From NCBI GenBank assembly GCA_965202585.1, contig OZ241829.1, positions 15,190,001 through 15,254,000 of the forward strand: a DNA stretch of 64,000 nucleotides, read 5' to 3'. The position numbers were made by a program, and so were the translations under genes. Below the pieces are notes generated by a model. The model was given only the letters and a program-made list of their open reading frames with translations. It had not been told where the DNA came from and did not search any database. Positions 3,001 through 64,000 of this stretch are shown piece after piece (the stretch's first letter is position 1; every line of letters begins with the position of its first letter). The stretch is from Thalia democratica (Eukaryota).

Positions 3001-3612
3001 TTTATAATTAATGCATTCAAATAGTTTTGTTCAATTTTAGTATACAAAAATTTTTTTTTGTCAAATCTTGGTTAAAGAAGTAGTACGTATACTATTATTA
3101 ATATTTTTAACCCTTATATGATAGCTGTATAACAATTGATACACTAGTAAATATACTTTAAATCAATCAATCCTTTCCCAATTTGCGTTAGTTAGTAAAA
3201 ATTTAAAAAATGCATCTATTGTTGGTGGTGTTAAATTTAACTATTATATAAATCTTTAATGATATCTTCTTTTTTTTTTGCAAAGAACCTTGCAATAATA
3301 CCAACGTTTTAGTTGAAAATTTTTCCAGCTCTATATTTTGCTAAAGCTTTTTTTTCAGTGTCATTTAAAGATAATGAAATATATTAGGCTGATTTGGATC
3401 TTTAGACAGTCCAGAGGTATAATTTGATGCCAATGTACAAGAAATATTGTAATTAAGTTTCTCTTTTCAATCTGTTAGAAATTATTTTTATTCCTAAATT
3501 GCAGATACAAAATAATATGAAAAAATAATGTTAAATCTTCTCTTTTGAACAACCTTCTTTACTATTGGATTTCCTTTTCCTTTGTGGGTATTTAATTATT
3601 TTTGAAGTTATT
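1..3612. repeat. Interspersed repeat R1, copy 1 (runs off window start); direct copy at 42861-46253
   Basis: Colinear similarity, from agctaacacattttgttaacttacc (1) = agctaacatattttgttaacttact (42861) through gaagttatt (~3612 / ~46253). No recognisable ORF; class unknown. Confidence 0.9.
926..1373. mobile_element. hAT-like MITE nested in R1 (second copy 43781-44226)
   Basis: Terminal inverted repeats CAG(A/G)GTT(C/T)CC ... GGAACCCTG, subterminal aaattcc(c)tataa repeats, and tataag on both flanks in copy 1 (imperfect TSD). Confidence 0.5.
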
Positions 3613-3630
3613 AATGTTTTTAAAAACACT

Positions 3631-4260
3631 GGTATTTATGCAGTTGAACTTACTCTGAAGACTTCTGTGCCAGCCTTCTGTGCCAGCCTTCTAGAGCATT
3701 GTTAGTTCGATGCTCTCCTGACAGTGTTTGAAGGTACACATTCCATAATGAAATAGGGAATAAGGGCTGACAGTTGCTTCCAGAAACTCCCACCAAGGTA
3801 TCTTCAAAATATGCAAAAAGAGGCAGAGTTCTTTAATCAAACTGATTAGATTGCCTCATCATCTTCAGGGACAAACGCCAATGCACTCATTTGCCTAATT
3901 GAGTGGGCAAAATCTCCATTCTCCTTTTCATATGGTTGCTTTAAGCTGAGTTCTATTACTTAACAATATATGAACAGAGTGAAGTAAAAGAAACAGCCTT
4001 CAGCAATACTATTGATGTTTTCATAAAATATATTAATGACAGCCCTTTCAAAATCAGTGTGCCATTCAAAAGGTCTTAAGACTTACATTATCAAGTAGTG
4101 CATTAATCATAGTCCTATATGTAGCTTCCCTTTTATTAGGTAACAAACAATACACTAAGGGAACTACTGAACCGTAGCATTTACCTTGTATGGTATACAG
4201 CTGGGGAAAAAGGCTTCCAGAATACGTAACTGAAAAGATTTCTCGGTCAAAATCAAACTA
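3631..4260 (-). mobile_element. Decayed MULE/Mutator transposase remnant
   Basis: Manual minus-strand translation gives FPQLYTIQGKCYGSVVPLVYCLLPNK, TDFERAVINIF..EGCFFYF, QMSALAFVP, AYFEDT and PISLWNVYLQTLSGEHRTNNALEGWHR, all MULE transposase motifs. Stops and frameshifts present. Confidence 0.8.
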
Positions 4261-4545
4261 AAAATTGTCTTCTTTATAATTTTTCGCACACTGATCATTG
4301 TTAATCAAGTGTTGTGCAATCACAGAAATTTTTTTTTGCAGATTTTCAACTGAAGGCTTATTTTGGTGATGGAATTTGGACTTCCTTGCTTTTTTTGCCA
4401 TAAACCTGGTTATTTTAAAACCTGGTTGTTTTGTTTATATGTTTTTACCTGTTTTGTTCACCTTGATAATTTAAATTGACAACAAGTAACATAGTTTTTA
4501 TAGTATTGTTTGACTCAAATTCACTCTTTTTTACTGTTGCAGTTA

Positions 4546-4860
4546 TTAAATTATAAAAACAAAAAGTTTAAGATAAATAAAAATCAACAAACCCAGAAAA
4601 CTGCATCCTGATTTGTCTATGCTTTCATCCATGTAAAAACTACAACTCTTTCCCACCATGTCAGTTATAATAAACTTTCTGAATATTGGTGCAAGAAAGT
4701 TAAGTACAATTTTTGTACATTTTGTTCGTTTTAAGGTAGCTGTGTCATGAACACTACCTATTTTCTTCATAACATCTACTAGGTGTGTGCCACTTTTCGA
4801 CATAATAGGTTTTAAGTTTGTAGAAAGGCTTAGAAATATTTTATTTCTAGTACCATGCAA
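4546..4860 (-). mobile_element. hAT-family transposase fragment (DUF4371/ZBED-type region)
   Basis: LKRTKCTKIVLNFLAP...SFYMDESIDKS..FLG resembles the hAT motif KCT.I..N.LAP...FS..IDESTD.S containing the first catalytic Asp. Confidence 0.6.
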
Positions 4861-5248
4861 ACATGGTACAAGACATTTTGCATATTTTCATTACTTTCTT
4901 CTCTCAAGTTTCTTGCACACAGCGTTCAGATGATCAAGTTTGACGTCAGGCGACTCAAGGAGCAGTCGGTTAGCGAATTGAGAATAACAGAACAGGACGC
5001 CTTCGTGACTGATAACGTCATGCTTGAATTTAGTCAACTTCTAACCGGAGTTCGAAAATTTTCAATTATTTTAACTGCTAGTTTTTGATGAGTTTTACTC
5101 ATATATTTTCAATTTTTCAACATTTTCTATTATTTAATAACGTTTTTAATATGTAAAAATCTTGATTATTTTTAGCTTAAAAAACAGTGCTTCTGCTGCA
5201 TTGTTATTTGGTAAAAATTTAATTTGTTAATTTTTTTTACAATCTTCT

Positions 5249-6179
5249 TTATTGATCAACTTTCTGGAAGATCATGTCGTTCAAAATTATTCCAGGAAAG
5301 ATTTTAAATTTTGATATCTTTGATACTCAACATTTAAAATACAAAACTAATTTAAGTATTGTCAAAAGTTGATCCTGTAAAAACTTACTTGTTGATAAAT
5401 AAAATGGTTAACTTGCATCTTCTACACCTTTTCAAATTTATTATTTTTGAAAAACTCTTCTTATATGTGCTCGGGTTCGCGAACAACGTCAACCAATTCG
5501 AATGAAGTTTCAGTGATCCGTTGCGGAAAAAGTTTTTTAAAAATTTACTAAAGAGGCCTTAAAAAACAGAAAATATGAGATCTTAAAATTTAGCAAATTA
5601 CAATGTAAGGATCATCAGCAGAGAAATCATCGAAAATGTACACCACTTTAGTGACATCTTTGCATACTTCTCTGATCTTCTCTTCTAGCCAGAACACTAA
5701 TTTCCAGATGGGCTTTTTCCGGTTCCAGTTGCCTACACTCAGGGCTACAATGTGGTGGTGTTTGTCCCATGGAAATAAATTATGTATAAAATTATAATTT
5801 TTTAATCTAGATGTTTATTTGTGGCAACAAACTAACCTGATTGTGGCAACAATGGCAACAGAGTATCGTAGTAGAGACATTTTTTCGTTATTGTATAAAG
5901 CATTTTTTCGCCGTCCTCATGCTTTAAGGCTCTTTTTATACGCTGTTAATTTATGATTTTGTTTAAAACACAATCTCTTGAATATTGTCAAGAATGAGCA
6001 TATCTCATACAAACTTATGTTAAGTTTACAGTTTAAGAAATACCTGAGTATATTCATTTACAGGGATATAAGCGAATTGCAGCAGGTCTCTAACAAGAGT
6101 TCTTCTTTGTTTCAAATGTGGTTTTGGCGGGCAGCTCGTTTTGCAAACGGCTCTAACTGCAAATCCGAATGCAGAAGAC
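5249..6179. repeat. Repeat X, copy 1; direct copy at 50887-51817
   Basis: attgatcaactttctggaagatcatgtcgttcaaaatta ... ccgaatgcagaagac is colinear in both places. Confidence 0.9.
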
Positions 6180-6448
6180 CTGTATCCTTTTTATTTCGAG
6201 TGTTATAGCAATCAAATTATTATTAAAAAAAAGAATTACAAAAAGTAACCTCAGTATTAGGTCTTCATTCCTAGCTGCTTAGCGTACAATTCTATCCCCT
6301 TCCTTCTGATGTTTTTCAGCGGTTTCACAACGGTTTAAAACGGGAGAGATTCTGTTTCGTGTTCTGATTATTTTTCAGTATTTTTTTACTCTTGTTTACT
6401 TAACTTAAATTTACATCAATAAGTTTAAGATATTGTTTACCAACTGAA

Positions 6449-6594
6449 ATACTAGTTTCCATAAAACGAACAGTTCTAAGCAACAAACCTGTTGCTAGGC
6501 AGCAGTTGGTTTTAAGATCACAGTCACCGATTGACGACAGCATTTTTTTGTATATTATGCAGGCCATTTCCCTTCTGATGTCCCAGGAGTTTAT
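6449..6594. repeat. Repeat Y, copy 1; direct copy at 53124-53283
   Basis: atactagttt(c/t)cataaaacgaacagttctaagcaacaaacc ... cccttctgatgtccc(a)gagtttatg is shared. Confidence 0.85.
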
Positions 6595-6830
6595 GATCAG
6601 AGTTGATCAGAGTTTTGCATCTCCTAGAGGAATAGAAGAACAGTTCTTCAGAGTTTCCTCTACCCCCGTGTTTAAGACTTTACCATTTCTGATTTTTCCT
6701 CAGGGTTTACTCCCGAAGCCTTTGCTTAGCCAAAAGCAACCACAAGGCAGTGGTGGTCGGCAAAGGTTTTACAGAGCTGATGCTAAATCAGCTCCAACCC
6801 CAAGGGGAGATCATGAAAGTTCTTCAGGGA
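6595..6830 (-). mobile_element. RTE-type LINE 5' UTR fragment (copy of 56158-56382)
   Basis: Near-identical to 56158-56382, which runs on into an RTE endonuclease ORF. Contains gggagtaaaccctgaggaaaaatc on the minus strand. Confidence 0.6.
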
Positions 6831-6851
6831 TCTTCTGTGTCATCTTTGTGA

Positions 6852-7777
6852 TCATCTTTTGAAAACCGTAATTTTGTTTCCTTTTACCATTCCAATAGAA
6901 TCAGGAGAGTCTTCGTCTAATATTTCCTTATCATTCAATAGAAAACGAACACTATTTTTTTCAACATCTTTTGTGTTGCAGTAGTTCTCAAATAAGCTTT
7001 TAAATTGAGCGTGTTTAAATACTTCATAGCATAATCGTCCATTGTCTAATTCTAATTTTCTCACACCTTCATCAACAACTTCATTAAAAATATCAGATGT
7101 TTTACAAGGTGCATCAGAAGTAGACGATTGTGAAAAGTGATTATCACTTTTGTAAGTAATAAGATAATCAAATTCGTCATCTTCAACAAGAGCATCGTTA
7201 CAAATGAGTTCAGAACGATAGTGTTCTTCATCATACAGCCTTTTTATAACTTCAAACTCGTTTCATTTTTCATTCAAAAAGATCTCGGGGTGTCATGCTC
7301 AAAGAATTCTGTTTCGTTGATAACAAAAGAAAATTTCTCTCGTTCAAGTCCTTTAGCCTCACAATAGTCCTGTATTAATCTTCTTAACTTAGTGTCATCA
7401 TTAATTTTGTAACTATGCGATCCGTCATCAAGAATAGTTTTGCTTAGTCCCTCATCAACGTAAGTGTGGAAAATATCATCAGTATTATCGAGTTTATCCG
7501 AAGTAGTTGTTGAAGGCTGTGAGTCAGTTTCTGTATTATCAAGTTTATCCGAACGACTTGCTGAAGGTTGTGAGTCAGTTTCATCGACATTACTTGATGC
7601 AGCTTCTATTTCCATGTTTTCTTTCTTCTTTGAATTTTTTCTCCAAACATCTAGACCATTCATTTTTTTCCATTCTTCAAAGAATGATCTCGGTCGAGCA
7701 GTGAAGTGCTTTTTTTTCCGACGATACGGATTTAAAAATTCAAATGCCTCAAGTTCTTCAAGGAAATTAAAATTCAT
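6852..7777 (-). pseudogene. Tandem SUMO-like-domain protein (Rad60/Esc2/NIP45-like architecture), copy A
   Basis: SLD1 YKINDDTKLRRLIQDYCEAKGLEREKFSFVINETEFFEHDTPRSF; SLD2 KSLFENYCNTKDVEKNSVRFLLNDKEILDEDSPDSIGMVKGNKITVF. Premature TGA at 7274-7276 and a 1-nt deletion near 7260 relative to copy B. Confidence 0.75.
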
Positions 7778-7829
7778 ATCTATGCTAATTAACTTATTAG
7801 TTTTTTTATTCAAATAGAATCAAACAATA

Positions 7830-10340
7830 AAACCATAAAGTTTACTATTATTAATAACCATAAAACCATATTATACTTTTAGTCTTAAAAGGCAAATTTT
7901 TAATGATGAGTATATTTTTGTTAGAAAACTTTACCTAGTTTCGTCAAACTTTGATCATATTTTTATGACATTTCCAAGGTAACAAAGTCAACGTTGTCAT
8001 TTCGATCTAAGAGCTTAAAAATTTGATCTTAAATGAAAATTTTACACTGATTGTAAACTCAACATAAGTTAATGTATGAAAACAGACTATGTACTACATC
8101 GTAATTATATTAGTACCAAAAACTTTCGTTTAAAAGTATCTGGTGTTTAAAACTATATTTTAAAGCCTCAAATATTATTAGGATTTGAAAAAAAAGTTTT
8201 AACCTCTCTCTTAAGCAGTAAGTTCGCCTCTATCCTTCATTTGATCTTTTATATGCATTGGTGAATTCACTCGCTTTAGTTAAAATTTACTTATAAATAC
8301 AGTTACTAACGAGCAACATTCACATGTTTTTGTTTTTGTGCACTTCATATTCAGTTTTAAACAGTTGTTTGAGAGATTGAAATATGAATTTTGTATTTTA
8401 TAGAAGAAACAGTTTTATATGTATCTCTTGTGACCCATGTACTGTTTTGTGTTGTTTTACATTCAGCCCGATTTTTAAGCTGATAAAATCAGTACTAGCT
8501 GTAGACTACAATATATTTCGCAGTTTAGTATAAAAATGAAATAAACAAGCATTAAGTGCTAAGACTACAGAATTAATTTTTTATAACACCGAAAGTAAAA
8601 AAGATTTTTCATATCCAGCTTTCGTCATTTTGTGAATATTTTTATACTAAGTTATCTTCATTAACAATTTTTTATTCAAGTGTATTCATCAATAGTTTTG
8701 GTAACACTTGTATCCTCGTCAAAATTTCAGCAAGCATCGACTTGAAGATTATCATTCATGTTCTTGGGAGCCATTTTTTGCTTGTATTTTTTTTTATAAG
8801 TTGTTTGTCAACAGATACGTCTTTAAGTTTGAAGTTTGCTGATAACGGTTGGTAGTTTTTCTCTTTTAGCAGTCCTACTTTTTTATTTTTCAACTTTTAT
8901 GTTAAGTTACAGTTCAGTCACTGTACTTCATTGATGTGAAGACTATTTTATCAGTTGATTAACTAGCTTTATCTACCTTTTTTTTTTATTGTAGCCTGTT
9001 GCTTAAACCTGCATTCCCTTACTAATCTGTATCATATGTTAGGAAGTACTAGTCAAAACATGTGCTGTTTTTTTATATATAATGATAATGTGATGTTATA
9101 GCCAGCATGCACAGGAAGTGGTATTCCATATTTAGCAGTCACCTCAGATAAATGAGATCACGTAAACCGTAGAAAAATCTTCTGCCTCTAAACTTCATCT
9201 AAATCAGTTCTACAAGTTGCTTGCAATACATCAAAATCTTGGCAGTGTATAGGCTCGCCGCGTTGGTACGTGTGCCATCTACTGCTCCGCGTGAAAGCTA
9301 ACATCTTAGAGAAGGCCTCATTAATGAGACCCCCCGTATAGATTCCACTACCAAGATAGACAAATTTTCTTTTTAAGAAAGTCATCTTGGACATGTGCAA
9401 AAAATAAGGTTCTTCATCCGTCTTTGCTCCGATTGTAACATTCATCCCAAAGCGTTTTCTCACCAGCCGTTTAAAGATGTTGAATTTAAACCAACCCCTT
9501 GCGGATTCATTAACAATAACAATAATGTCGTCCCCATAGATAGCAAGGGAAAAATACTCCTTGAACATCTCATAGGTGAGATGCTTACTCACCGCTTCCT
9601 TATAAGCTAATCTAGCAGTGGTATTGTTAATGGCAATATTTATGATTGAATTGTCGGGGGCAGTACCTGGTTGGCCTGAAATGTGGCCAGATGGCAATTG
9701 ACAAAGGACGTTGTTAACAAGACATAAGGGTTGCCGGAGTGCAGTAAAAAACCCGTTGCGAAGTAAATCATCTTCCGGCTTCCAATTAGGGTCAAAACGC
9801 CGATACAGCGTATTATAAAGATATGAAAAATTGTTCCTTCACAGTAATGTCGAATACCTTATAGTCAGCGTCAAATCCATAATGTCCATTCCGGGTTAAA
9901 TCTTTATAGAGATAGTTCCACTCAATAGATTGCGGGACTACGCCAATTGGGTGGTGGGACAGAGTTTCCGCCAAGAGGTTATGAAGGGCGCCGTTATACC
10001 TACGACCAACAATAACACCGTCAACAGGACAAGCACAAAATATGCGGGGTTTCCCAACTTTCTCAATAGGTCTGGCCTCATCTTTAAGGCAAGCAGTAGC
10101 TATCATCACTGTGCGTCGCTCGGCCTTACATTCGTTAATAAAATGCGAAATCTGAAATAAATATGTATATTTCTTTAGGTTTTCCATTTGTGGATTTAAA
10201 TATTATACTTGAAAACTATTTTTTTTTAATAGAAATCTATTTTTTATTTTTAGTTATACTGGAAACAAACTTTACTACAACAAGGACACAAGTATCCCTG
10301 TAGTATTTCGCTCTTGTCCTTTTTCTTATTTCTCAATTTT
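7830..10340. repeat. Repeat module W, copy A (7830-9096 and 10163-10340, interrupted by the RdRp insert); other copies 50140-50760, 57420-58850, 60280-60570, 61720-62760
   Basis: Shared blocks such as gtaacaaagtcaacgttgtcatttcgatct, gttcgcctctatcctt, cagcaagcatcgacttgaaga and cttaggttttccatttgtggatttaaa. Confidence 0.85.
9097..10162 (-). pseudogene. Endogenous viral element: picorna-like (+ssRNA, Picornavirales-type) RNA-dependent RNA polymerase fragment
   Basis: Motif F LKDEARPIEKVGKPRIF, PIGVVPQSIEW, motif A FDADYKVFD, motif B SGQPGTAPDNS, motif C YGDD and motif E TFLKRKF, in correct order. ORFs 9813-10187 and 9188-9697 are joined by one frameshift near 9816-9839, bridged by YNTLYRRFDPNWKPEDDLLRNGFFTALRQPLCLVNNVLCQL. 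GC is visibly higher than the flanks. Confidence 0.93.
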
Positions 10341-10974
10341 TAAACACACATAATTACAAATAGTACAAACGAAACACCAATTTACTAAATTATTCACATC
10401 GTTTCATGTATAAATATTCTGTTTAAGACACCATATTTCTGCTTCTTCCTCTGCTGGCCATCCGAACGCAGCCAGAACACCTTCCTCCTCCTTTTTTTTG
10501 TATTGCAGATTTTTAATTTTATATTTTATTTATTAAAAAAAAATTTAAAAAATAAAATTGGTGATCGCAGCTTGATCTTGCACAATTGTTATAATCTTTT
10601 CTTAAAACTGCCTTACAAATTCTGTGATCCTACGTGGTTCTTATTCAACAATATTTTCGTATAGAGATGCTTGACGTTTCAATACAATGTCCAACTATTC
10701 ATCTGTGGCAACCCTCAAACTTATGAACAGCTTCCTTTATTTTAAACCCTTTGTAGCTCTTGCTGTCTTAATTTTTCTTTTCAAAATGTAATTACAATCT
10801 GAAAACACAAAACACAATAACTTTCACCAGACAGTACAGATCAGGTAATCTTTCTTCTTTCCAGTTTTATCTAAAACTAGCGGAACGTTGGTGGGATCCA
10901 TCAACGAACAGACAATTAGTTTCTTTATTTGAGTTTGGTAAGGCGTTGAGTTTAAAGGTTAAATATGATGAAAT

Positions 10975-11190
10975 TAATTAAACCGTAAGTTTGCTAATCT
11001 TAATATCACTAAAGCGTTGAGCAAAACATTTCCCATTTGATATTGCCACTTATTTTTTGTATAATTCATAACAGAAAAATCACGCTCAATCCTGGCGTTG
11101 CTAAAAGGTTTTTTTTAAAACTTAACCATCAACTCACACAATTCTTTGTACTTTTTTAAACCATCTTTCCAGAATTTTACGGTTGTAAAA
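10975..11190 (-). mobile_element. hAT transposase C-terminal dimerisation-domain remnant (copies 59270-59490 and partial 63940-64000)
   Basis: KFWKDGLKKYKELCELM...SNARIERDFSVMNYTKNKWQYQMGNVLLNAL matches the hAT consensus FW...SNA..ER.FS.MN..K.K.RN....LL.AL. Confidence 0.75.
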
Positions 11191-12739
11191 CTTCCTATTA
11201 AAATATAGCATTTGTTTTTGACAATTTGTTTCTATAAAAAAACTTTTAATAGTAATTTAATTCAAGCTAGTAAAATAAGTTTAAATGCTGATATTTAATT
11301 CATAACAAATTTTAAAGTATTAGGGTAACATTAATTTATGGTTTAACAATTTAATCTTGTTATAATTGTTTGAAAAGTAGTAAGCAAGCATTTAAAAGCA
11401 TATGTTATTTATATGAAACACAAAAGTTCTAACTAATTTGTTTGGCTGACAACACGAAATTGATTATTTTTTAGATAAAAACACGATTTTTTTTGATCTG
11501 ACAAGTTATACATAACTTTGAAATTTTTAGGTTCAATAAGTTTGTTAATATCCGTTGACTCAAGGCCTGTAATAAAACATATAATGTTTTGCAAAACAAT
11601 GTATTTGTTTTCATTAAAAAAAGCTTAAAAAAAAGCAACTATTTTGATCAACAACTTTGTTTGATGCTATTAAGTCTAGATTCTGTCGCATCCTGTTATC
11701 ATTTTTACTTAAAGGTTGTATTGTGTAACTTCTATACAGTTGTATGGCCCAATTTGGGACATCGAAGTTTTCAGTGCTGTCGGTTTTTTTCCACATAGTT
11801 TTATCATAGAACATAACTGATTTGCATGTATGCATAATTGTATCTATCTTAAATTCTGTGAATTTTGAATAAGAATTACAGAAGTTGATTATAGTAGATG
11901 TTTTCTTTATATTGTTGGATTAAAGTTTTTGATGTCAAAGTACACGAAGCGTTTGTCGCTTTTGTTGCTGATTTTTTTGAACCAATCTACTACTTCGTCA
12001 AGCAAATTCAATTGATATAATACGATCTAAAATAAAAAACACGTTGAATTTTATTGACAAATTTAATAAAAGACAAATATAATGCAATAAAAATTTGTAA
12101 TTACTTTCAATTAAACCGAGTTGTATGTAGTCAAAATAAAAAATAATAATCTTCATGAAAAGAATCTTCGTCAACAATTTTTTAAATAACCGCAATGTCC
12201 ACAAAACCACTTTAAATTCTCTTAAAGATTTAAGAATGCAATCATTGTAAGGAATGCAATTAAATGGAACTACTTTTTACAACCTCACATCTCAACTAAA
12301 AAAAATAAAGTTTGAGAAATAAGAACGTTAGTTAAAAACAACTATTGATGTTCTATATTTTAGTTCCGACAGACAGCTATACAAAATTAAGAAAAGCTTA
12401 CTAACCTACTTTACCTTTTCGTTCTTCTTTTTCCTACGCCACGCAGGATCATCTCTTGTACATTTGTAGCATTAAAAATTATTTACGACTGAAATTAAAA
12501 ATTACGTAGAACTTGATCAATATGTAATGTTTAAAAATGTAATGCTTGCTCAAAAATTTCATTTATTTTGCTTAGTAGTAGTTGAAATTTATTAGTTAAC
12601 CTCCGTGCTTTATTAGGCTTGTTGCAATTTCTAAGCGTTTTGAATTAAGGTGTTCGCAGTTAGTCTCGACACGTATGTTTGTTAAAGACAGAAAAAAGCA
12701 AGATATAAATTGTTCTGCAACCTAAGCAAATTAATAAAA

Positions 12740-13020
12740 GTTCATTCTCATCTGTATTATTTTTTCTTAAACATATTATTCTATATTTTTTTCCAAACTT
12801 CTTTATTGTGCAATACTGATTTATATGCATTTAAGGTTATTTTTATTTCCTGCTCGCTTATTTTTTTACTTTCGTTTGCAAAAGCTAAAGCATTTTTTAG
12901 TAATTTTTCTGATATTGATGGGTAAAATTCTACAATGTCATACTTCATGAACTTGTACTTGTATGTACTAAGTGTTTTGTACCTATTAATAACTTCTTGA
13001 GTGTTTCGCAATTGGAGATA
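12740..13020 (-). mobile_element. Penelope-like element reverse transcriptase fragment (copy 61370-61610)
   Basis: RNTQEVIN...KYDIVEFYPSISEKLLKNALAFA...I...EIKI...KSVL...WKK matches the PLE RT motif FDI.EFYPSI. Confidence 0.75.
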
Positions 13021-13439
13021 TTTGATTAATTTTCTTCAAATAGTATTGATTCTATCAACTCTACATTTGCTAATTTGATTTATATCTTATGTTGTTTGCT
13101 AATATAATTATAATATATATATATAAAAAATATTGACATAATATAATTATTTTCTTCTTGATTTATCAAGCAGTATAAGATGCTGAATAAGTGTGGGTAT
13201 CAGTAAATTATTTGTATTTGTAGATCATTCAACTTCATATCTTATTTTTACTAAAAAGAACGGAATTTTACCGAATACAGACATGATAAAAACTCAACAT
13301 GGTCTTTATAGCTTATATCATAGTTGTTTGAGTCTCATTTTTTGATGAAGCACAACATTACCATCACGTTAAACTGTTATTTTGTTCTTTGACTGAAAAA
13401 CGTTTTCAAGTTTTAGTAAAAGCTATTTTAATACTGAAT

Positions 13440-14386
13440 TATTATTATTAAGTTTATTGTCCAACAAAGGACCTAGGCATTAAAACCTAGGTCACTTAAA
13501 CTGAAAGACACTAAAAAGAAAAAAACAAATTACAGTGATTAAATAAACATAAACATAAAACTTATACAAAGTACAAACTGAATAAATTAAAACTTTCACA
13601 ATTCAACGATTCCAAAGTCACCAATCTCCAATTATACGTTCCAAAGCAACAAATACCTGTAACAAGCATTTCTGTCAAATCTTCAGAACCTGTCTTCATC
13701 ACGCAGAACACTGATCTGAGCTACTATTTGCCACTCGTTATGACGGCAAATTCAGTCAAAAATCACTTCAAAAATGTGGCAGCAACAGTTCACAAATCTA
13801 GCTTAGAAATCAACTGAGTATCCAATAATTTCAAAATCTAAAGCCCAAAGCACATTAACAACAGCCCTTCCGAAAAAATCAAAGTTGAAAAGTACCTAAA
13901 ATCTATAAGGGGAAGGTGTAGCTTACAGATTAAACTACCAATAAACTACATACCACACACCAAATCAATGGCTAAAGAGATGAACAAAACTAATCACTTA
14001 TAAATTTTACTGGTAAATATTTTATTTAAATCAAATCTTTTTAAGTTTAATCGAAAATCTTTAAGATTTTTGCACGATACTAGTTCATTTGGAAGTTTGT
14101 TCCACATTTTTACCGAACGATAGAAAAAAGATTCGTGCCAACCAACATAGTTGAAATGATATTTGCATGTATATTTTCTATTATTACCTCTAAGTGAGTA
14201 ATTGTTTTCATAAGGTTTAAAGAAAGTTTGAGAATCAATAGTAGTTTCATTGTTAATCAGTTTAAAAAAAGTAATTAGATCAAATTCAAGTCTTCTGTAT
14301 TCTAAAGTTTTTATATTAAGCTGTTTTAAGAACTTTAAAACAATGAACGACAATAAAAAATAACTATGGTTATAATAAGAATATTG
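13440..14386 (-). mobile_element. 5'-truncated CR1/L2-clade LINE: ORF2 C-terminus, 3' UTR and TAA tail
   Basis: LNIKTLEYRRLEFDLI..FK...SLRGN...FFYRSVKMWNKLP.ELVSCKNLKDF is a typical CR1-group ORF2 end. The 3' end has a gacctagg..cctaggtc stem and an aataataataa tail at ~13440-13495. Confidence 0.8.
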
Positions 14387-14522
14387 AATCATAATGCAGT
14401 CGTGAGGCAATAGACAAAGCTAGACCATAATATAACAAAATACACATAAAGAGCTAAAATTTAAAGAATCTACAAAACTTATACAAAAGCGAGCGCATCA
14501 CAGAAGTAGCCACAGCCATGAA

Positions 14523-15056
14523 CTAAGACGAAATGTTATGTTTGAATTCAACCTTAGCCATGATTTTCGTAAACAACGTACGCTTCTCATTAGGCATGTC
14601 AGGTATCTCTCTTTTATGTTTTAATTTCCTACAATTATTCTCCATAACGAAATCGTAAGCAGCTAAGGCGTAACACAAATCACCTGCAGTCTTATAATTG
14701 ATAAAGATGTCATAATCTTTTAGCAAACAATCAATCATCATCAGGTTGATTCTCTTTTTTCGTCTGAAGTTTAGAATTAATTGACCCTTATGCCACTCGT
14801 CCTCTAACATGGCAAGTTCGCCATCACAATCCGATCTGTCCAAGTGCCTTAAAAACTCTTTCTTCTTAAGTAAAAGACGATCCTCGTCAGTCCACCTCCT
14901 ACTGTCCCCCGCGCCCGCGAGCCCCAGGTCTGTAGTTTGCTTAACTTTCCAGTTGACTTTATCTAATATAATTCTTCTTCCGTTATGGTTAATCACCGAA
15001 GAAGCGGAATCCAGCAACTTGCCAGTTACTAGCATACCACCTTCCTTATCCGGCAA
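14523..15056 (-). CDS. Orphan 177-aa ORF in a GC-richer island, copy 1 (candidate virus-derived)
   Basis: ORF track. The frame continues upstream past one in-frame TAG (SRLDEKVLLPTVIHIQDDQSVASLAAEMLLMGE*LGFDILPDKE). No introns; no family recognised. Confidence 0.5.
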   Translation of the reverse strand: MPDKEGGMLVTGKLLDSASSVINHNGRRIILDKVNWKVKQTTDLGLAGAGDSRRWTDEDRLLLKKKEFLRHLDRSDCDGELAMLEDEWHKGQLILNFRRKKRINLMMIDCLLKDYDIFINYKTAGDLCYALAAYDFVMENNCRKLKHKREIPDMPNEKRTLFTKIMAKVEFKHNISS

Positions 15057-15898
15057 TATATCAAAACCTAGCTACTCACCCATCAATAACATCTCTGCGG
15101 CCAGCGAAGCTACACTCTGATCATCTTGAATGTGTATGACAGTAGGGAGAAGGACCTTCTCATCTAACCTTGAATTATGACTTAAATCCTGAATTGTTTG
15201 AAAATGATTTGAAAATTACCTTTTGTTTTCATAAACTTATAAATGTCATTTAAAGATACATTTTAATGCATGTATCATTAAAAGTTCTGCTGCGTTGATA
15301 ATAGAAATGGAACAATCATACTACACACGTTTAATTAAGATACTTTTAAAGTAAACTCCTATAACTTTTACATACTTATCATTCAAATTCAACAAATGCA
15401 AACCAAATACTTTGTTGGACAACACCTAATTTTACTATCTCTCGTTTTGCAGGCTGTCTGAGACTCAATTTTGGCTTACTAAAATAATAACTTATAATTA
15501 ACCTCGTATAAGATTAGCATAAATGGAGCTATATATTGTTTTTTATTTTTATTTCATTGATGACAACTATTTTAATTAAGAAAAGCTTACTAACCTACTT
15601 TACCTTTTCGTTCTTCTTTTTCCTACGCCACGCAGGATCATCTCTTGTACATTTGTAGCATTAAAAATTATTTACGACTGAAATTAAAAATTACGTAGAA
15701 CTTGATCAATATGTAATGTTTAAAAATGTAATGCTTGCTCAAAAATTTCATTTATTTTGCTTAATCATAATGCAGTCGTGAGGCAATAGACAAAGCTAGA
15801 CCATAATATAACAAAATACACATAAAGAGCTAAAATTTAAAGAATCTACAAAACTTATACAAAAGCGAGCGCATCACAGAAGTAGCCACAGCCATGAA

Positions 15899-16432
15899 CT
15901 AAGACGAAATGTTATGTTTGAATTCAACCTTAGCCATGATTTTCGTAAACAACGTACGCTTCTCATTAGGCATGTCAGGTATCTCTCTTTTATGTTTTAA
16001 TTTCCTACAATTATTCTCCATAACGAAATCGTAAGCAGCTAAGGCGTAACACAAATCACCTGCAGTCTTATAATTGATAAAGATGTCATAATCTTTTAGC
16101 AAACAATCAATCATCATCAGGTTGATTCTCATTTTTCGTCTGAAGTTTAGAATTAATTGACCCTTATGCCACTCGTCCTCTAACATGGCAAGTTCGCCAT
16201 CACAATCCGATCTGTCCAAGTGCCTTAAAAACTCTTTCTTCTTAAGTAAAAGACGATCCTCGTCAGTCCACCTCCTACTGTCCCCCGCGCCCGCGAGCCC
16301 CAGGTCTGTAGTTCGCTTAACTTTCCAGTTGACTTTATCTAATATAATTCTTCTTCCGTTATGGTTAATCACCGAAGAAGCGGAATCCAGCAACTTGCCA
16401 GTTACTAGCATACCACCTTCCTTATCCGGCAA
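15899..16432 (-). CDS. Orphan 177-aa ORF, copy 2
   Basis: The 829-bp unit 15763-16591 is nearly identical to 14387-15215, with two amino-acid differences in the ORF (Q/R, K/M) and the same upstream TAG. Confidence 0.5.
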   Translation of the reverse strand: MPDKEGGMLVTGKLLDSASSVINHNGRRIILDKVNWKVKRTTDLGLAGAGDSRRWTDEDRLLLKKKEFLRHLDRSDCDGELAMLEDEWHKGQLILNFRRKMRINLMMIDCLLKDYDIFINYKTAGDLCYALAAYDFVMENNCRKLKHKREIPDMPNEKRTLFTKIMAKVEFKHNISS

Positions 16433-16993
16433 TATATCAAAACCTAGCTACTCACCCATCAATAACATCTCTGCGGCCAGCGAAGCTACACTCTGATCAT
16501 CTTGAATGTGTATGACAGTAGGGAGAAGGACCTTCTCATCTAACCTTGAACCATGACTTAAATCCTGAATTGTTTGAAAATGATTTGAAAACCAGAAAAG
16601 TTTAAGTTTCGTAACCGAAAGTCAATGGAAAGATTGTAGCACTCAATTGAAAAACTAAGTATTTAATACAAAAACTTCTAAGAAAAAAATTAGCGATTTG
16701 TTTTTAATTAGATTTGAAGTTCCAGTATGTAGTATAAAAAATTTTAAACCCAGTAGCTAGTACATTGTTAATAGTAAATAGTGTAAACAAATAGAAAGCA
16801 CAACAGCTTTATTGAAATTAAAATAACGAAAAAAAAACTAGGCGATTAGTTTTAATGAAATTAAAAGAACTAAATAAGAATATTATTTTTTCTTTCAAGC
16901 GAATCTATTAAAAAATAGATAGAACTAAGTTAGCTTTGCAAGTCTAAAAAGGTTTCTGTTTTTAAATAAATTTTAGAAGCAAGCTACAAGAAG

Positions 16994-47520: not shown

Positions 47521-47859
47521 CACCAACTCTAAGGCTTGGATCATAAATTGATCATTCTTGTGTAATTTAACTCAAAATTTAATTTCAAAACTGTGCTACT
47601 TTTTATTTTGAGTTGCCCATGTTTTGATTTAACTTATTAAGTGTTAGGATGCAATCTTTTTTTGATTAAATAAGTGTAACATAGCACTAAATTAAATTTA
47701 TGAATGTATACCTATAGTATGTTTTTATAGGTATGTTTCTCTATTTAATGAAACACAAATGAAATACATATGCATTTCTATCTCTTCAAATTTTACAAAT
47801 TTAGATAAGTAAGATTTATAAGTGCACAATTTATTTTAACATTAAAATTTATAATCCTG

Positions 47860-48230
47860 GCTATTGCACTAAGGTAGTCAAGTTTTTCCATCAATGGATA
47901 TCTTTCCACGATTGTTTTGACTCTTTCCTCTCTTTTCCGAATATCCTTCGAGGAAGATGAGGACTCTCACTGCTTTCGTAACGAGCCACTCTTGCAGAGA
48001 TCAGTCTTTGCTATCTCTTCAACGACTTAATGCACTTAAAAACACTGGGATTTGCGCAGTTGAACTTACTCTGAAGACTTATGTGCCAGCCTTCTACAGC
48101 ATTGTTAGTTAGATGTTCTCCTGACAGAGTTTGAAGGTACACATTCCATAATGAAATAGGGAACAGGGGCTGATGGTTGCTTACGGGAACTCCACCCAGG
48201 TATCTTCAAAACATGCAAAAAGAGGCAAAT
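47860..48230 (-). mobile_element. MULE transposase C-terminal remnant (overlaps the 3631-3830 sequence)
   Basis: 48043-48228 matches 3628-3830. Translation gives CFEDTWV, the WNVY region, NPSVFKCIKSLK and ERVKTIVERY...LDYLSAIA. Confidence 0.75.
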
Positions 48231-48981
48231 AGTTTAGAGTTTTTGCGTTATAATTGTTAGAATAAGGCAACCTGACAATGCACACAAAATTTGAACTATT
48301 TTTAAAATTTAAAAGAAATTCTCAATTTCTATTTCTTTTACATACACAATACAGCTATTAAATAAAAGAATTACCTGAAGAGTTCTGTAAAGTAATTTAA
48401 AGTATTTTAGCTCAACATGTACTCTGGTATATACCAATGCCATAAGTCTTATCTACTAGAAGGATGCGTGTACTTTTTAAAAATTACAAATAATATCAGC
48501 TATTTAAAGGTCAGTACAGACCAAATTCTGGTGAATCTCCTGCTAAATTACCATATGATTAGACAAATTCATCACTTGAATTTACTAAATCTTTTAAGGC
48601 GTGAATAAGATCTATTTTATACCGCTCAGCAATCTCGTACAGCAACTTCCTATCAACCTAACATGAAATCTATGGTCTTCAGTGCATTTAAGAGTAAAAT
48701 ATTTGCATGTTGTAAGATAAAAGCAGCATTCTTTTTTTTCACCAAATAACATTTTTTTTTAATTATTTTGGTTTGTTCAACCAAAAACCTGTAAAAATAC
48801 AAAGTTGTCATGTTATACGAAATTTAAGGAATTACTTCTATCCAATTATTTTACACCTTTTTTTGATGTTATTTTACAAACTTGCCTTAATATGTCTAAA
48901 ATAATTTTAGTGTAAAAGTTAGCTGGATCATCTTTAACACATTTGGTAGGAGTTGAGTGTTTCGAATAATTCCATTATTTC

Positions 48982-49909
48982 GTTTTTATTTTTAAGGTGC
49001 AGTTATTATTACACTTATTTTTTTACAATAAGTCTAGTGGAATTATCTGTAGTTTTTTTTAATTTTTTCATCACCAGAGAGATGGTTACCTATAATCTTA
49101 AAACATATTTCTCTTATTGGAAAGTCATCTAGATGCCGTGGGGTTTTTATTTGATATTTAGTGAGAAGAATCCGTTTAGTCAATCTGAAAGAATGCAAAT
49201 TTAGATTCACGAAGGTTAACATAGGATCTATATACCTCTTCGCATTAACATGCTCATTTTTGATTGATCCTATCCTTTTTAACAACTTGATGAACTCCTT
49301 TTTTGAGTAAAATGATTTATTAGCTTCAAGAACCATCTTGAGCATTGAATGCGGCTCCTGATCCAGTAGCTTCGTCGCTAAATCTATTTCATTCTCCATA
49401 GCTGCTAATCTATCGCTGGTGGATTTTGTCATCTTATCCTCATTTATTTGAGTCATAGAGTATGCTATGGCATAAATTCCCCGAGCCATAGCACTAAAAA
49501 ATCCAGCAATTTCATTCGCGTTCTTAATTAACTTTAATGTCGGATTAGCTAAAGAGAAAGCGGCAAGATCCTTTGCATTTATATAACTATAAGCGGGATT
49601 CATATTGTCAGTGAGAACCATATCCTCAGGAATGGTGGAAGCCAAAATATTAAGGGATCTGTACATAGACGACAACTGTTCATTACCCAAATCTAACAAC
49701 GCAAGAAGTGTCCTAATCTGAACCATTGTTATCGTTTCTTTTCCAACGGTGATGGTCTTTCTTTTCATATCCATTTTTGTACTGGTTTTTATTTTTAAGG
49801 TGCAGTTATTTTTACACTTATTTTTTTACAATAAGTCTAGTGGAATTATCTGTAGTTTTTTTTAATTTTTTCATCACCAGAGAGATGGTTACCTATAATC
49901 TTAAAACAT
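48982..49909. repeat. 125-bp direct repeats (48982-49106 and 49785-49909) bracketing a 678-bp unique segment
   Basis: The two copies differ at one position (gttattatt vs gttattttt); period 803 bp. Confidence 0.92.
49043..49774 (-). CDS. Intact orphan 243-aa ORF (candidate virus-derived or retrocopy)
   Basis: ATG in caaaaATGG context, no stops, intronless, GC above background. The last ~21 codons lie in the 125-bp repeat. No family recognised. Confidence 0.65.
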   Translation of the reverse strand: MDMKRKTITVGKETITMVQIRTLLALLDLGNEQLSSMYRSLNILASTIPEDMVLTDNMNPAYSYINAKDLAAFSLANPTLKLIKNANEIAGFFSAMARGIYAIAYSMTQINEDKMTKSTSDRLAAMENEIDLATKLLDQEPHSMLKMVLEANKSFYSKKEFIKLLKRIGSIKNEHVNAKRYIDPMLTFVNLNLHSFRLTKRILLTKYQIKTPRHLDDFPIREICFKIIGNHLSGDEKIKKNYR

Positions 49910-51962
49910 TTATTATTGAAGTTTGTTGGCTATACCGTGCTGTTTTTTATTAAAGAATATTCTTCTACGTTTCTTGATTTATTGCTTGGCTTTGTCTTCA
50001 AAGTTTGGTTCATTTTCTTGTCTTTCTTTTTTGATTTCAGTTTTATATTCATAAAACTTTTTTTTTCTAACGAGATCATTAAAGTTTCCCATATTTTATT
50101 TTTTATTTTTAAAGCAATTTTTTAAATGATAAGTATATAGTGTATAGAAAAATCTACCTGGTTTTGTTTTACTTCGATCATAGTTATGTGACATTTCCAG
50201 GGTAACAAAGTAAACGTTGTCATTTCGATCTAAAAGCTTAACAATTTGATCTGGAGAGAAAATTTTACACTGATTTTAAACTCAACAGAAATTAAATGTT
50301 TAAAAACAGATTAGGTTCTCCATCGTAATTACATTAGTATCAAAAACTTATGTGTACAACTCTGTTTATTACAGCTATATTTTAAACATTAGTATGCTGT
50401 TTACTTGATTAAAATAGACAAAGTGTTTTATTCAACACTTTTTATCACTCTGGTACAGTTGTAGCAAATTTTCTTTATTTACAGTGTTAAACACTTACTA
50501 TAAAACTTCATCTGTATTTTAAAAACTATATTTTAAAGCGTTAAATAATATTAAGAGCCAAGTTAAACCTTTCTCCTTAGCAGTCGTTTGCCTCTATATT
50601 TAATTTGATGTTATATATGCATCGGTGAGTTTACTCGCTTTAAAGAGAATTTTGTTTTAGATAAAATTACTAATCAGTAACATTCACATGTTTTTGTTCT
50701 TGTGCACTTCAAAGTCAGTTTTAAACAGTTGTTTAAAAATTTGAAGTGTGAATTTCGTTTTTTATAGAAAAACCAGTTTTATGTGGATCTATTATAAATC
50801 TGTACAAAATCAAGAGAGTCATTATCAGTCTCTACAGATTTTTTCAATAACTCTATTTGGTTAGCTTTTACAACACAATCTTCTATATTGATCAACTTTC
50901 TGGAAGATCATGTCGTTCAAAATTAGTCCAGGAAAGGTTTTATATTTTGTTATGTTTGACATTTAAAATACAATAACCACTTTAAGCATTGTCAAAAGTT
51001 GATTTTGTAAAAACCTACTTGTTGACAAACAAAATGGTTAACTTACATCTTCTACACCTTTTCAAATTTATTATTTTTGACAAACTCTTCTTAATATGTG
51101 CTAGGGTTCGCAAACATTGTCAACCAATTCGAATGAGAGTAAAGTTTTAAAGATCCGCTGCAAAAATAGTTTTTTTAAATTTACTGAAGAGGTCTTGAAA
51201 AACAGAAAATGCGAGATCTTAAAATTTAGCAAACTTACAATGTACATGAGCATAGAAATCATCGAAAATGTACACCACTTTGGTGGCATCTTTGCATGCT
51301 TCTGTGATCTTCTCTTCTAGCCAGAATACTTCTTTTCTGATGGGTTTTTTCCGGTTTCATTTGTCTACACTCAGGGCTACAATTTGGTGGTGTTAGTCCC
51401 ATGGAAATAAATTATGTATAAAATTTTCATTTTTAGTCTTAATGTTTATTTGTGGCATCAAACTAACCTGATTGTGGCAACAATGGCAACAGATTAACGT
51501 AGTAGAGACATTTTTTCGTTATTGTCTCAAGCATTTTTTGGTCGACCTCATGCTTTAAGGCTCTTTTTATACGCTTTTTATTTATGATTTTTGCATAAAA
51601 CACAATCACCTAAAAATGGTCAAGAATAAGCATATCTCATACAAGCTCTTATTAAGTTTACAGTTTAAGAAATACCTGAGTATATTCATTTACAGGGAGA
51701 TATGCGAATTGCAGCAGGTCTCTAACAAGAGTTCTTATTTGTTTCAGCAGTGTTTTTGGCGGGCAGCAGACTTTCGTTTTGCAAACGGCTCAAACTGCAA
51801 GTCCGAATGCAGAAGACATTTGCATAGGCGTGACATTTGAGTGGTTTTTTTGTATTTTTGTAATTTACCTGTTTTTCAATACTGCAATCTTTATAGTAGA
51901 ATGTGACTCATGTTTGATATTGTTTTTGAAGTTAAATAAATTGTTGAAGCTAGTAAAACACA

Positions 51963-52739
51963 TTAACACTTTTTTATCAAATCAAGACCCTCACTCCCGT
52001 CCTCCTTTGCATCGATTAAACTAGCGGCCTCCTCGTTGGACAATTTGATGTGATAACGCTTAACAGAGAAACTATCAATCATGGTTTCCACTTTTTTAAC
52101 TCTGGCAAAATACGCTCTGATTATCGCGGCACCAAGTGCATCTACCTGCTCTTTTTTATGATGATGATTCAGTCTAGGAATAGGAAGATTCTCGTTAATG
52201 TAGATTCTTGTTTCCTCGGAACTTTTTCTTTCTCTCAACATTCTATCTAACTTGAAGGCTGCCTCACTCAAAACTGTTGCGATTAATCGAAGAACCGAAG
52301 AAGTTCCTAGTCCATACTTACCCAGTTTTTCAATACGGTCCTTCTTTTGAATCTCTACCATTCCATTTCTCCATACAAACTTGCAATTTAACGTAGTAGC
52401 ATCTCTCGCAAAGTCTTTTGCATCTTGAATGCTCAATGCATATCCAATAACATTACCATAAACAGGGGGTTTAATCACGGCTACCGTCGCTCTTCCTACC
52501 GTTTGTAACTTGCCTATTTCGGCGTCTTCAAAGAACTTTCCAATTACCTTAACAAAATCAGTATCTTTTTTTGCTTTTTCAATACCAAGAAAATACTTAC
52601 ATCCCATCAATAAGTCCTCGTTTCCGCTCATAAAGATTTTAGAGTCATCAAAACCGTTTATCACGGCCTTAGCAGTTTTAAGCAACGGCAAACTATCTAT
52701 TCTTTTATCGCTTTTAAACTTTGAGAAAAAATAAGTCAA
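51963..52739 (-). CDS. Orphan ORF, 258 aa from TTG; frame stays open ~45 codons further upstream to ~52874 (candidate virus-derived)
   Basis: ORF track plus manual upstream translation (GRRLSADQLFYGGKISSVSFFTGFNAEVGDLELEEAWKVEDNINKL). Intronless, GC above background, no in-frame ATG at the 5' end. Confidence 0.6.
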   Translation of the reverse strand: MTYFFSKFKSDKRIDSLPLLKTAKAVINGFDDSKIFMSGNEDLLMGCKYFLGIEKAKKDTDFVKVIGKFFEDAEIGKLQTVGRATVAVIKPPVYGNVIGYALSIQDAKDFARDATTLNCKFVWRNGMVEIQKKDRIEKLGKYGLGTSSVLRLIATVLSEAAFKLDRMLRERKSSEETRIYINENLPIPRLNHHHKKEQVDALGAAIIRAYFARVKKVETMIDSFSVKRYHIKLSNEEAASLIDAKEDGSEGLDLIKKC

Positions 52740-55259
52740 TTTATTAATGTTATCTTCAACCTTCCACGCCTCTTCTAATTCTAGATCGCCGACTTCTGCG
52801 TTAAATCCGGTAAAGAAACTAACACTGGAAATCTTACCACCATAAAAAAGCTGATCCGCTGACAGTCGACGACCTCACTTTTTGTCTGAATCATTCTAAT
52901 GATATTAAACATAGTTGGATCATTAGTATTATTCTCCATAATCAAATTTAAACAAAATGTTCTGGCAATTAATCACCGTTCTTTTTGTCTTCTTTGATCA
53001 AATTTAAATAAATTATTCTAACAATCAATTTATTATCTTTAACTCTTTAGTCAAATTCAAATGCGAAGCTATCTAACAATTATTTTATTTGGCTCCAATG
53101 AATACTTTTTTAAATCCCAATTTATACTAGTTTTCATAAAACGAACAGTTCTAAGCAACAAACCAGGCTAGCTACAAAGTTGCTAGGCAGCAGTTTGTTT
53201 TAAGATCACAGTCACCGATTGACGACTGCATTATTTCATATATTATGCAGCCCATTTCCCTTCTGATGTCCCACGAGTTTATGTACTTAGCCGTGCACAG
53301 CGACCAACTCGAAAATTTACAACTGCTGTTATTTTCTCCCATTGAAAGTATTCTAGTCAATTTGTTCGAGGTATGAAGCTGTAGCAAATATCCAGGGACA
53401 CAGCGTCCTTTAACCACATAAATGCCTCCTAACTTTCGTCGGTTGTAGCAAAATAACTTGTTCTATACTCAAAATTTTCAGCTTTCATCTCTGCTAATCT
53501 AAATTTAAGTTCAGTTGGATGTTTAATATTTTGATAGTTAATAAGACAGATAAAACTATCAATTTAGTATCTACACTAAATGAATTGATAATTTCTAGCA
53601 CTTCGAGAACTAATGCCCGGATAAATGCTTGTAAATACATTACTTATGTTGTCATAAGTTTTTTTTCTTAATAATGGCATATACTTCCATGTTTATTTTT
53701 ATTAAATTTAAATAATTCTACACTTTCTAACATTTTCTAACCCCTAGCACCACCAGCTGCTACTATGGCATCATTATAAACGGTTTAAGTCTTTCTGGGT
53801 TCTATTAGACACCTGGTACCTTTCTCGTGATAATTTGTTCAAGAATTACATCTATCTGTTTTAGTCTTGTTTAAGTTTAACAACACATGTCCATATTCGT
53901 AATCCTTACTTGGAGTTAAGTTGTTAAAGCAAAGAAGGTGTAAATTTTGATAACATTTTCCGCAGCCTTTCTAAAATATTTATTTTTTATGATGATTTAT
54001 TATTATGTAAATTAAATGAATATTGTTTTTCTATATAGACCATTTGATGCTTTCTGTACATTAAACTGACTTAGTTACATCATACTCATCTAAACCACAC
54101 GAAAAACAAAATTTTGGTGCTGGAAACTTTTAAGTTACTAGAAAAATTTTTTTAAATCCTTTTTTTTTTGGTTACCGTGCAGATATGTTATAACACATGT
54201 TGCAGTTCTTCACAATTTTCAGACATAAGCATCCTACAGCGACTGGGCGACATTTGACAAAAAAAGATGCTGCGATAATATTTAGATTATTATTAAACTC
54301 GATTTTAGTTTAAATTATTGATTGTCTAGTTCAAACGCTCTCTTGAAATCGTCTTCTGTATTCCAAAGTTTTTTTGATGCAAAAACAATTCAACATGGTT
54401 GTCGTTGCTGTTTTTATTAATTAAGTTATTTCTCCACCATTTTTTGATGAAGTGCATAACCTGCACTTTGCATGTGTGGATTACGCACATTATTACGTTA
54501 AACCGTTCTTTTTGTTCTCTAAATACAAAATATTTCCAATACTGCAAAAGCTATTCCAATACTGATCTATTTAGAACCGATCTAAAAATTATCCTTTGCC
54601 TTCATAAATTTATTAATTCATTTTAAGATACACTTTGATGCTTGTATCTTTTAAATAAGGTGCTGATCCGTTCAAAATAGGAACAACCACACTCCACACG
54701 TTTAATTTAGCTAACTATAACATTTGGTAATATAAGGGAATTGCTTTTTTTAGAAACAATATGATAAAGTTACTTACAAAGAAAATAAGTGCTAAAACTT
54801 TAATATACTTAACGCTTTTTATGTCCCTTTTAATTAAGTTGAGCTATGGCCTGTAGTTGTATTGTTCAACTTTCTGGGAGATATGTTGCTCACAACTATT
54901 CCCGAATAGTTTTAGATTTTTGTATCTTTGCTGATGGAATTTCTTTTATTTTAGTAAAACTTGCGTTTAAAACTTCTAAACTCTGGGATAAAACTAAAAC
55001 AAATTCAACTGTTATCATCCACACGTAGGACTTGGTAAGTCTAAGAGAATGTTGGTTTACAGTTGTATTAGCGCAATGATGTCGTTCATTATGACGTAGT
55101 CGATGCTATCGTTTACATCCAGCAATTCAGCTATTTTTTCTGTATGTCAGGATATTTAAAAAAAAAAGTTTAAGAAAAATATAAGGCATTTAGTATTTAT
55201 TTACCTTTATTTTTTTTTTTGTCAATGTTATTAATGATGGAACCTAAATTTTCCATCAT

Positions 55260-56382: not shown

Positions 56383-56445
56383 TCTTCTGTGTCATCTTTG
56401 TGATCTTCTGTGTCATCTTTGTGATCTTCTGTGTCATCTTTGTGA

Positions 56446-63300: not shown

Positions 63301-64000
63301 TTTTAAATCTTTTATCCAAATAAATACAAACGAAACACCAACTTACTTATTTTTTTACTTCGTTTAAAACAAAAAAAGTCTATTTAATACGTCATATTTC
63401 TGCTTCTTCCTCTGCTGGCCATCCAAACAGCTAGAACACCTTCCTCCCCTTCTTCTTAGTATGTGTAGATTTTTAATTTTAATTTTTTGTATTTTTAACT
63501 TAACTTTTACAAAAAAAAAAGGTGATTGCAGCTTGATCTTGCAAAATTGTTATAATCTTCCCTTAAAACTGCCATACAAATTATGTGATCCTACGTGGTT
63601 CTTATTCAAAAATATTTTCGTATAGAGATGCTTGACGTTTCAATACAATGTCCAACTATTCATCTGTGGCAACCCTCAAACTTCCAAACAGCTTCCTTTA
63701 TTTTAAACCCTCGTCTTGTAGCTCTTCCTGTCTTTTAGCTTTTTCTTTTAAAAATGTAATTACAATCTGAAAACACAATAACTTTCACCAGACAGTACAA
63801 ATCAGGTTATCTTTCTTCTTTCAAATTTTATCTAAAACGAGTGGAACATTGGTGGGTTTCATCAACAAACAGACAATTAGTTTCCTTATTTGAGTTTGAT
63901 AAGGCGTTGATTTTAACGGTTGGATATGATGAAATTAATTAAACCGTAAGTTTGCTAATCTTAATATCATTAAAGCGTTGAGCAAAACATTTCCCATTTG

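Follow-up and report, generated by a model that had tools for sequence, protein, structure and literature searches.

The window, by which we mean the whole analysed stretch of 64,000 nucleotides, contains a fragment of a picorna-like viral RdRp gene that joins host DNA at exact junctions, is absent from paralogues of its target site, has decayed, and lies co-oriented with transposon and reovirus-like pieces (Table 1). We propose, with a probability of about 0.55 for the reading as a whole, that a non-LTR reverse transcriptase of the host produced this EVE from viral RNA in the germline, and that the EVE has since been kept in a block that would silence through piRNA-type RNAs. The one-strand, multi-virus context of the insert was missed in the earlier note on this DNA, which had been concerned with the insert and its empty sites.

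Table 1. Coordinates of the insert, its target site, the surrounding blocks and the other viral loci (positions are those of the window where no locus is named).
Feature	Position	Strand	Remark or basis
Picorna-like RdRp fragment (EVE)	9097..10162	-	1066 bp; both ends fall inside the domain
Open piece A (motifs F, A)	9816..10160	-	RdRP_1 match
Open piece B (motifs B, C, D, E)	9191..9838	-	RdRP_1 match
Left ATGT	9093..9096	+	flank alignment
Right ATGT	10163..10166	+	flank alignment
Empty site A, diverged	~58677..58680	+	paralogue alignment
Empty site B, single ATGT	60521..60524	+	paralogue alignment
Empty site C, single ATGT	62607..62610	+	paralogue alignment
Block A, mosaic	3600..16590		GC 0.32; plus strand rich in T and C; fragments code on minus
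Block B, sister mosaic	47700..64000, on to ~79,500		GC 0.31; polarity as block A
MULE-like transposase fragment	3625..4212; copy 47844-48193	-	E 0.011, weak
SUMO-like (Rad60-SLD) repeat gene remnant	6855..7819; copy 56449-57269	-	family search
Penelope-like RT fragment	12720..13086; copy 61331-61682	-	tblastn matches
Young LINE, 5' part (endonuclease + RT frame)	55397..56410; part also 6603-6857	-	RT/endonuclease domains
303-aa orphan frame	51963..52874	-	variants 60-66% identical elsewhere in host genome; candidate viral piece
567-aa orphan family fragment	14526..15215; second copy 15902-16591	-	candidate viral piece
Reovirus inner-capsid (VP3-like) fragment	49107..49784	-	7xr2_A, E 7.4e-6, 192 aa; 678 bases; block B
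Picorna-like SF3 helicase piece, ~1.4 kb	L111:622-2043, C8:56.368 Mb	+	one in-frame stop
Phenuivirus-like nucleocapsid pieces	L113:6693-7466, L152:6808-7605, C8:56.34 Mb	+	on the strand of the helicase piece and with it in one block resembling A and B
Phenui-N piece	L147:4196-5389, C8:63.72 Mb	-	antisense among dynein heavy-chain exons, outside any block
Mononegavirales-type L pieces	L034/L035, C1:23.09 Mb; L036/L037, C7:31.96 Mb		family search

Two minus-strand open frames match RdRP_1 (PF00680), the first at 9816-10202 over model positions 129-245 (E 6.9e-17) and the second at 9191-9838 over model positions 271-415 (E 4.1e-16). The claim of some 325 codons with ordered RdRp motifs is therefore borne out, at E ~1e-16 in each of the two frames. 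The motif order F-A-B-C-D-E is canonical, with F at 10085-10038, A at 9872-9849, B at 9679-9647, C (YGDD) at 9538-9527 and E at 9379-9368, the letters F, A, B, C and E being what we take to be their usual labels. The internal frameshift that had been claimed was recovered between ~9840 and ~9820, that is, between motifs A and B. As for the claimed decay at the C-terminal end, a profile built from 58 relatives covers the insert between 10154 and 9194 and, behind this main piece, aligns a collinear tail piece (9157-9116), an arrangement that fits two extra frame breaks near 9190 and 9150, although the tail pieces are individually non-significant with this profile (E ~1 and ~5). Homology to the profile begins eight bases inside the proposed insert boundary, and the best tblastn matches stop near 9113-9122. 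The insert has a GC content of 0.42, versus 0.29-0.30 in its flanks, and is single-copy in the host genome according to both a DNA search and a family search.

The relatives of the fragment are viral. At E <0.001, 583 representatives matched it, the best being 34-40% identical and mostly 1,800-2,900 aa long. RdRP_1 was present in all 18 top matches scanned and the picorna-type RNA_helicase in 16, the two proteins lacking it being partial, and no cellular or retroelement polymerase occurred among these 18. The top relatives come from aquatic picorna-like viruses and have the layout of helicase-(protease)-RdRp polyproteins, followed in some by a calici-type capsid, as the claim of a viral RdRp would have it. 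Of the 29 viral matches looked up, 6 have virus names, among them Beihai sipunculid worm virus 5, Apostichopus japonicus-associated virus, Pot worm picorna-like virus, Vittapili virus and Crogonang virus 134. The insert thus resembles the picorna-like viruses of aquatic invertebrates in its RdRP_1 domain and motif order, but differs from them by its long branch (1.5-1.6 changes per column). The phylogeny called for in the earlier note gave this long viral branch and left the sister group divided between the two pieces: a quick tree of 71 of 151 rows puts piece B together with four unnamed viruses and the Vittapili clade (SH-aLRT 95), whereas piece A, in a quick tree of 30 rows, does not group with the Vittapili clade. 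Both trees are built from the RdRp, the only viral gene present, and neither includes Picornavirales family references, so to judge from these alignments the insert represents an unclassified picorna-like lineage, without family assignment. No closer virus was found by a word search limited to lengths of 379-2000 or in viral contigs, and a metagenome search with the insert returned one match, at 31%. Our literature search found nothing on 'Vittapili', and nothing joining ascidian, EVE and piRNA.

We then considered whether the fragment truly resides in the host genome. It lies on a host scaffold of 85.7 Mb with no N within the window, in a neighbourhood that encodes an animal-like Arp1 as well as kelch genes. 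As the earlier note had described, a host repeat is split with ATGT present at both ends; in a simulation of 200,000 trials, a blunt random insertion mimicked a duplication of at least 4 bases in 2.1% of cases. The uninterrupted sites were likewise found, two paralogues carrying ATGT once and a third being diverged. These empty sites are paralogous, not allelic, and an older paralogue ~115 kb upstream has the same flanks only ~570 bases apart, which leaves too little room for the insert. Contamination by viral sequence or a chimeric assembly would hardly produce frame breaks along with junctions that are exact to the base, at a site whose paralogues are empty; several further broken viral pieces in host context also speak against it. 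Picorna-like viruses have, to our knowledge, no DNA stage, hence nothing that could enter a DNA library, and a host reverse transcriptase is required. What can be said for an artefact is that no second haplotype or allelic copy of the flank appeared among 17 matches and that the junctions are known from the assembly, for which reason inheritance of the insert is something we infer. Six sequencing runs were listed for a query stretch of which 51% was insert; two of them share a sample and contain 0.61 and 0.60 of its words, but as this sample may be the source of the assembly we do not count them as support. No RNA run was among those listed, and the small shares that marine metagenomes had of the stretch say nothing about habitat. 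Altogether, on the scaffold, the continuous host flanks, the empty paralogues, the frame breaks and the single copy, the assembly upholds the claim of integration: the fragment is very probably a germline insertion, and an artefact is highly improbable.

The age of the insertion can be bounded. Over 900 bases of left flank, the K2P distance of the filled site is 0.079 to empty site A and 0.087 to empty site C, and A and C differ by 0.049, which caps the insertion at ~0.06 on the filled lineage. The insert carries ~3 breaks per kb, compared with 3.0 frame-breaking indels per kb in a nearby SUMO-like stretch at 2.5% divergence. These sequence comparisons suggest an age of ~2% divergence, roughly half that of the local duplication, with a ceiling of ~6%. 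The earlier note had considered the insert datable by the segmental duplication; a rough ceiling is indeed obtained, but not a precise date, since divergence varies along the mosaic flanks from 2.5% to 13%. Across positions 6860-11975, divergence from the paralogues was 2.5% at the far left, 8-13% beside the insert and 7-10% on the right, as if the insert had hindered homogenisation. The ~950 bases of pieces A and B that read without an in-frame stop might be taken to mean that a viral polymerase gene was domesticated and still works. However, at 2% divergence a lack of stops is nothing unusual (P=0.52; at 8%, P=0.08), and the truncation at both ends and the single copy make domestication extremely improbable; a working enzyme was rejected because the frame is broken between motifs A and B.

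How the viral sequence entered the site is less clear-cut. An RNA fragment of the polymerase gene would have been copied in the germline by a host non-LTR reverse transcriptase, and priming by a LINE or Penelope-like enzyme at a staggered nick would produce the 4-base ATGT duplication. Such enzymes have left traces in both blocks, among them a young LINE, presumably RTE-like, whose family shows 95-99% identity in 39 of the 43 matches listed. A target preference is suggested by several copies of this LINE (L065-L086) that lie, all oriented alike, within one tandem repeat. We would put priming at a staggered nick, rather than break repair, at about even odds. The insert ends within the RdRp with no A run, so there is no poly(A) at its junctions, and no LTR sequence is joined to it, both flanks aligning straight onto the empty sites. 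With only 4 shared bases and no poly(A), end-joining would fit, and viral cDNA could have been captured through microhomology during double-strand-break repair, with no target-primed step. ATGT may itself be a target-site duplication or microhomology; by admitting a single additional T on the left, the match can be drawn out to 7 bases, TAT continuing the left-side match. Break repair would also agree with the helicase piece at C8:56.37 Mb, which an older paralogue 5 kb away lacks and which, compared with this 70-80% identical paralogue, has replaced or lost target bases without any duplication. On the other hand, no target base was lost at the RdRp site, and the VP3-like fragment is flanked on either side by a 125-bp direct repeat (48982-49106 and 49785-49909, 124/125 identical), suggesting varied routes and not one. 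We therefore regard break repair at the RdRp site as rather unlikely. The comparison with other animals bears on both routes, since mammalian EVEs have target-site duplications and poly(A) and insect EVEs are described with neither (PMC2987831). Our insert shares with the LINE-mediated mammalian EVEs of that report an apparent flanking duplication and an empty site that sets a maximum age; it differs from them in being an internal fragment with only 4 apparently duplicated bases and no poly(A), where theirs are whole genes with poly(A).

The second component of our reading concerns the setting of the insert. Blocks A and B stand out from the remaining sequence by their GC content (0.32 and 0.31 versus 0.23-0.25 elsewhere) and by negative skews, and both are heavily self-duplicated. 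In block B the motif AATAAA occurs 50 times on the plus strand versus 104 times on the minus strand. Ten source frames were picked by hand for tblastn, and eight gave matches; all 28 matches inside the blocks were on the minus strand, versus four plus and one minus outside. Counted per element, this polarity has p=0.016 for the 7 elements independently supported by family or structure, and p=0.001 for 11 elements when orphans and two short unsupported frames are included. There is one plus-strand match in block B from a frame of no known class (L004:1998-2396), and the other plus-strand rows derive from frames antisense to the same block elements. Save for that one match, transposon and viral fragments are co-oriented as in a uni-strand cluster. 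Rfam gave 0 matches in 42000-63000. Outside the blocks, an intronless BACK-kelch expansion occupies both strands (window 28095-29070; L006, L012, L018). As the kelch expansion resembles that of ascidians, the genome was searched for three cellulose-synthase-related families; two gave no match, and the third matched a gene that seems chitin-synthase-like by its motif. At C5:14.85-15.09 Mb (L132, L149, L150) older relatives of the target repeat, ~70% identical, lie in inverted blocks with mirrored skew.

Several block elements are orphans. The 303-aa family has three variants (window 51963-52874; L025, L027, L028, L029-L033) and one unnamed homologue at 62%; nothing was found for it in Pfam, PDB, Atlas or metagenomes, and its model (pLDDT 38) gave no fold match at E 0.001. 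Copying between blocks is suggested by a 420-bp piece of this family, of which at least 9 repeats at 98% identity lie within C8:65.1-65.4 Mb. The 567-aa family is intronless, with two variants, 69% identical, adjacent at C10:7.60 Mb (L042, L043) and four fragment copies in or near the window (14526-16591; L014, L015); searches gave no match, and its model has a pLDDT of 28. More GC-raised orphan frames of the same polarity occur at L051:2565-3380, L053:4158-4619 and L015:7054-7821, with no family or PDB match for those that were searched.

Viral pieces are also found elsewhere in the genome. The structure matched by the VP3-like fragment of block B is the inner capsid of mud crab reovirus (PMC9207676). 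An Atlas search with the VP3-like frame gave no match, and a 27-aa VP3-like piece recurs at C5:14.70 Mb. The Mononegavirales-type L pieces are, we assume, rhabdo-like and chu-like; the one on C7 is duplicated and directly borders, with shared orientation, on a GIY-YIG Penelope-like element. Host-genome family searches for Bunya_RdRp, Orbi_VP1, RdRP_4 and Flu_PB1 came back blank, which does not prove absence: the Tenui_N search found one locus and missed two weaker pieces at C8:56.3, so that our counts of viral loci are lower bounds. Along the viral sense, flank AT skew was 0.067, 0.079, 0.103 and 0.061 at four viral loci, a value of at least 0.06 being reached in 0 of 25 neighbouring bins and 1 of 11 blind bins; at a fifth locus, C8:63.72 Mb, found after the prediction had been made and so its single fresh test, the skew was 0.006 and the prediction failed. 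A control on LINE flanks was positive in 18 of 22 but was discarded, at least 6 of these flanks sharing one tandem repeat and so being non-independent; it shows all the same that such skew is not unique to viral loci, and it may be only an echo of the A-rich coding strands of co-oriented pieces. Among the pieces shared between loci, 82 of 99 were concordant and 17 opposite by a hand count; 32 of the 82 are concordant by construction, and their removal leaves 50 of 67.

We speculate that each block is read on the plus strand, which would yield piRNAs antisense to its cargo, and that such an output would favour the retention of inserts in the same orientation. Judging from the arrangement of the fragments, the odds that the block is transcribed in this way and forms a uni-strand piRNA-type cluster seem to us balanced. 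A serious rival is that the insertion is real but that duplicated DNA has merely piled up around it, in a neutral region prone to recombination, its orientation stemming from tandem duplication and nested insertion and not from silencing. The heavy self-duplication of the blocks agrees with this, as do the viral locus found outside any block and the EVEs of horseshoe crabs, for which no piRNAs were found (PMC12282059). Duplication, however, preserves the orientation of copies and does not align 7-11 unrelated elements, and the polarity rule is seen on other chromosomes as well, so that we consider a neutral dump possible and somewhat doubtful.

The putative silencing cluster has its closest parallel in mosquitoes, where nrEVEs are captured in antisense by core piRNA clusters (10.1101/2022.08.22.504762). 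As in Aedes, several RNA-virus groups are co-oriented with transposon pieces in blocks of tens of kb (10.1101/2022.08.22.504762; 10.1101/127498; 10.1101/396382). The polarity that Aedes EVEs have in common with LTR elements was attributed to LTR recombination (10.1101/127498), whereas here the junctions carry no LTR and the insert is accompanied by pieces of LINE, Penelope-like and MULE-like elements and of host genes; moreover, the viruses are picorna- and reo-like, and the cluster is one predicted from sequence. Across 48 arthropods, piRNA clusters are enriched for EVEs, and the EVEs belong for the most part to unclassified, rhabdo- or parvo-like viruses (10.1101/396382); the word 'picorna' is absent from the main text of that study, whose supplementary family lists may hold picorna-like EVEs, and from the main text of an amphioxus survey (PMC10145014). 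The statement in the earlier note that +ssRNA EVEs are reported less often does not hold in general, as most classified EVEs in Bombus are +ssRNA (PMC12922265) and dicistrovirus-like EVEs occur in two horseshoe crabs (TgEVE3, TtEVE3; PMC12282059). EVEs from Picornavirales are thus uncommon but already published. Those of horseshoe crabs are, like ours, fragments of a Picornavirales non-structural polyprotein in a marine animal genome; they differ in virus lineage, in that no piRNAs were found for them and in that no base-exact empty site is noted in the report (PMC12282059).

Filled and empty versions of one site, base-exact and in the same assembly, are uncommon for a picorna-like EVE, and this site permits a direct view of how a virus that has no DNA stage enters a genome and leaves neither poly(A) nor LTR traces. 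The interest of the locus lies in these clean empty sites and LTR- and poly(A)-free junctions, and further in a one-strand, multi-virus setting of putative function. It also preserves an unsampled virus lineage, the best match being 39-40% identical. A bolder suggestion, which we advance tentatively, is that a marine and possibly non-arthropod host may keep genome-wide one-strand archives of picorna-, reo-, phenui-like and Mononegavirales-type viruses, built without the help of LTR elements, with pieces copied between loci and giving rise to antiviral piRNAs, and that the 303-aa and 567-aa orphans may stem from unsequenced viruses. If the cluster role is true, the blocks indicate where orphan viral genes can be mined; and if small RNAs confirm the cluster, the antiviral memory provided by EVEs, for which mosquitoes have been the main evidence, would also be a property of this host and would cover picorna- and reo-like viruses.
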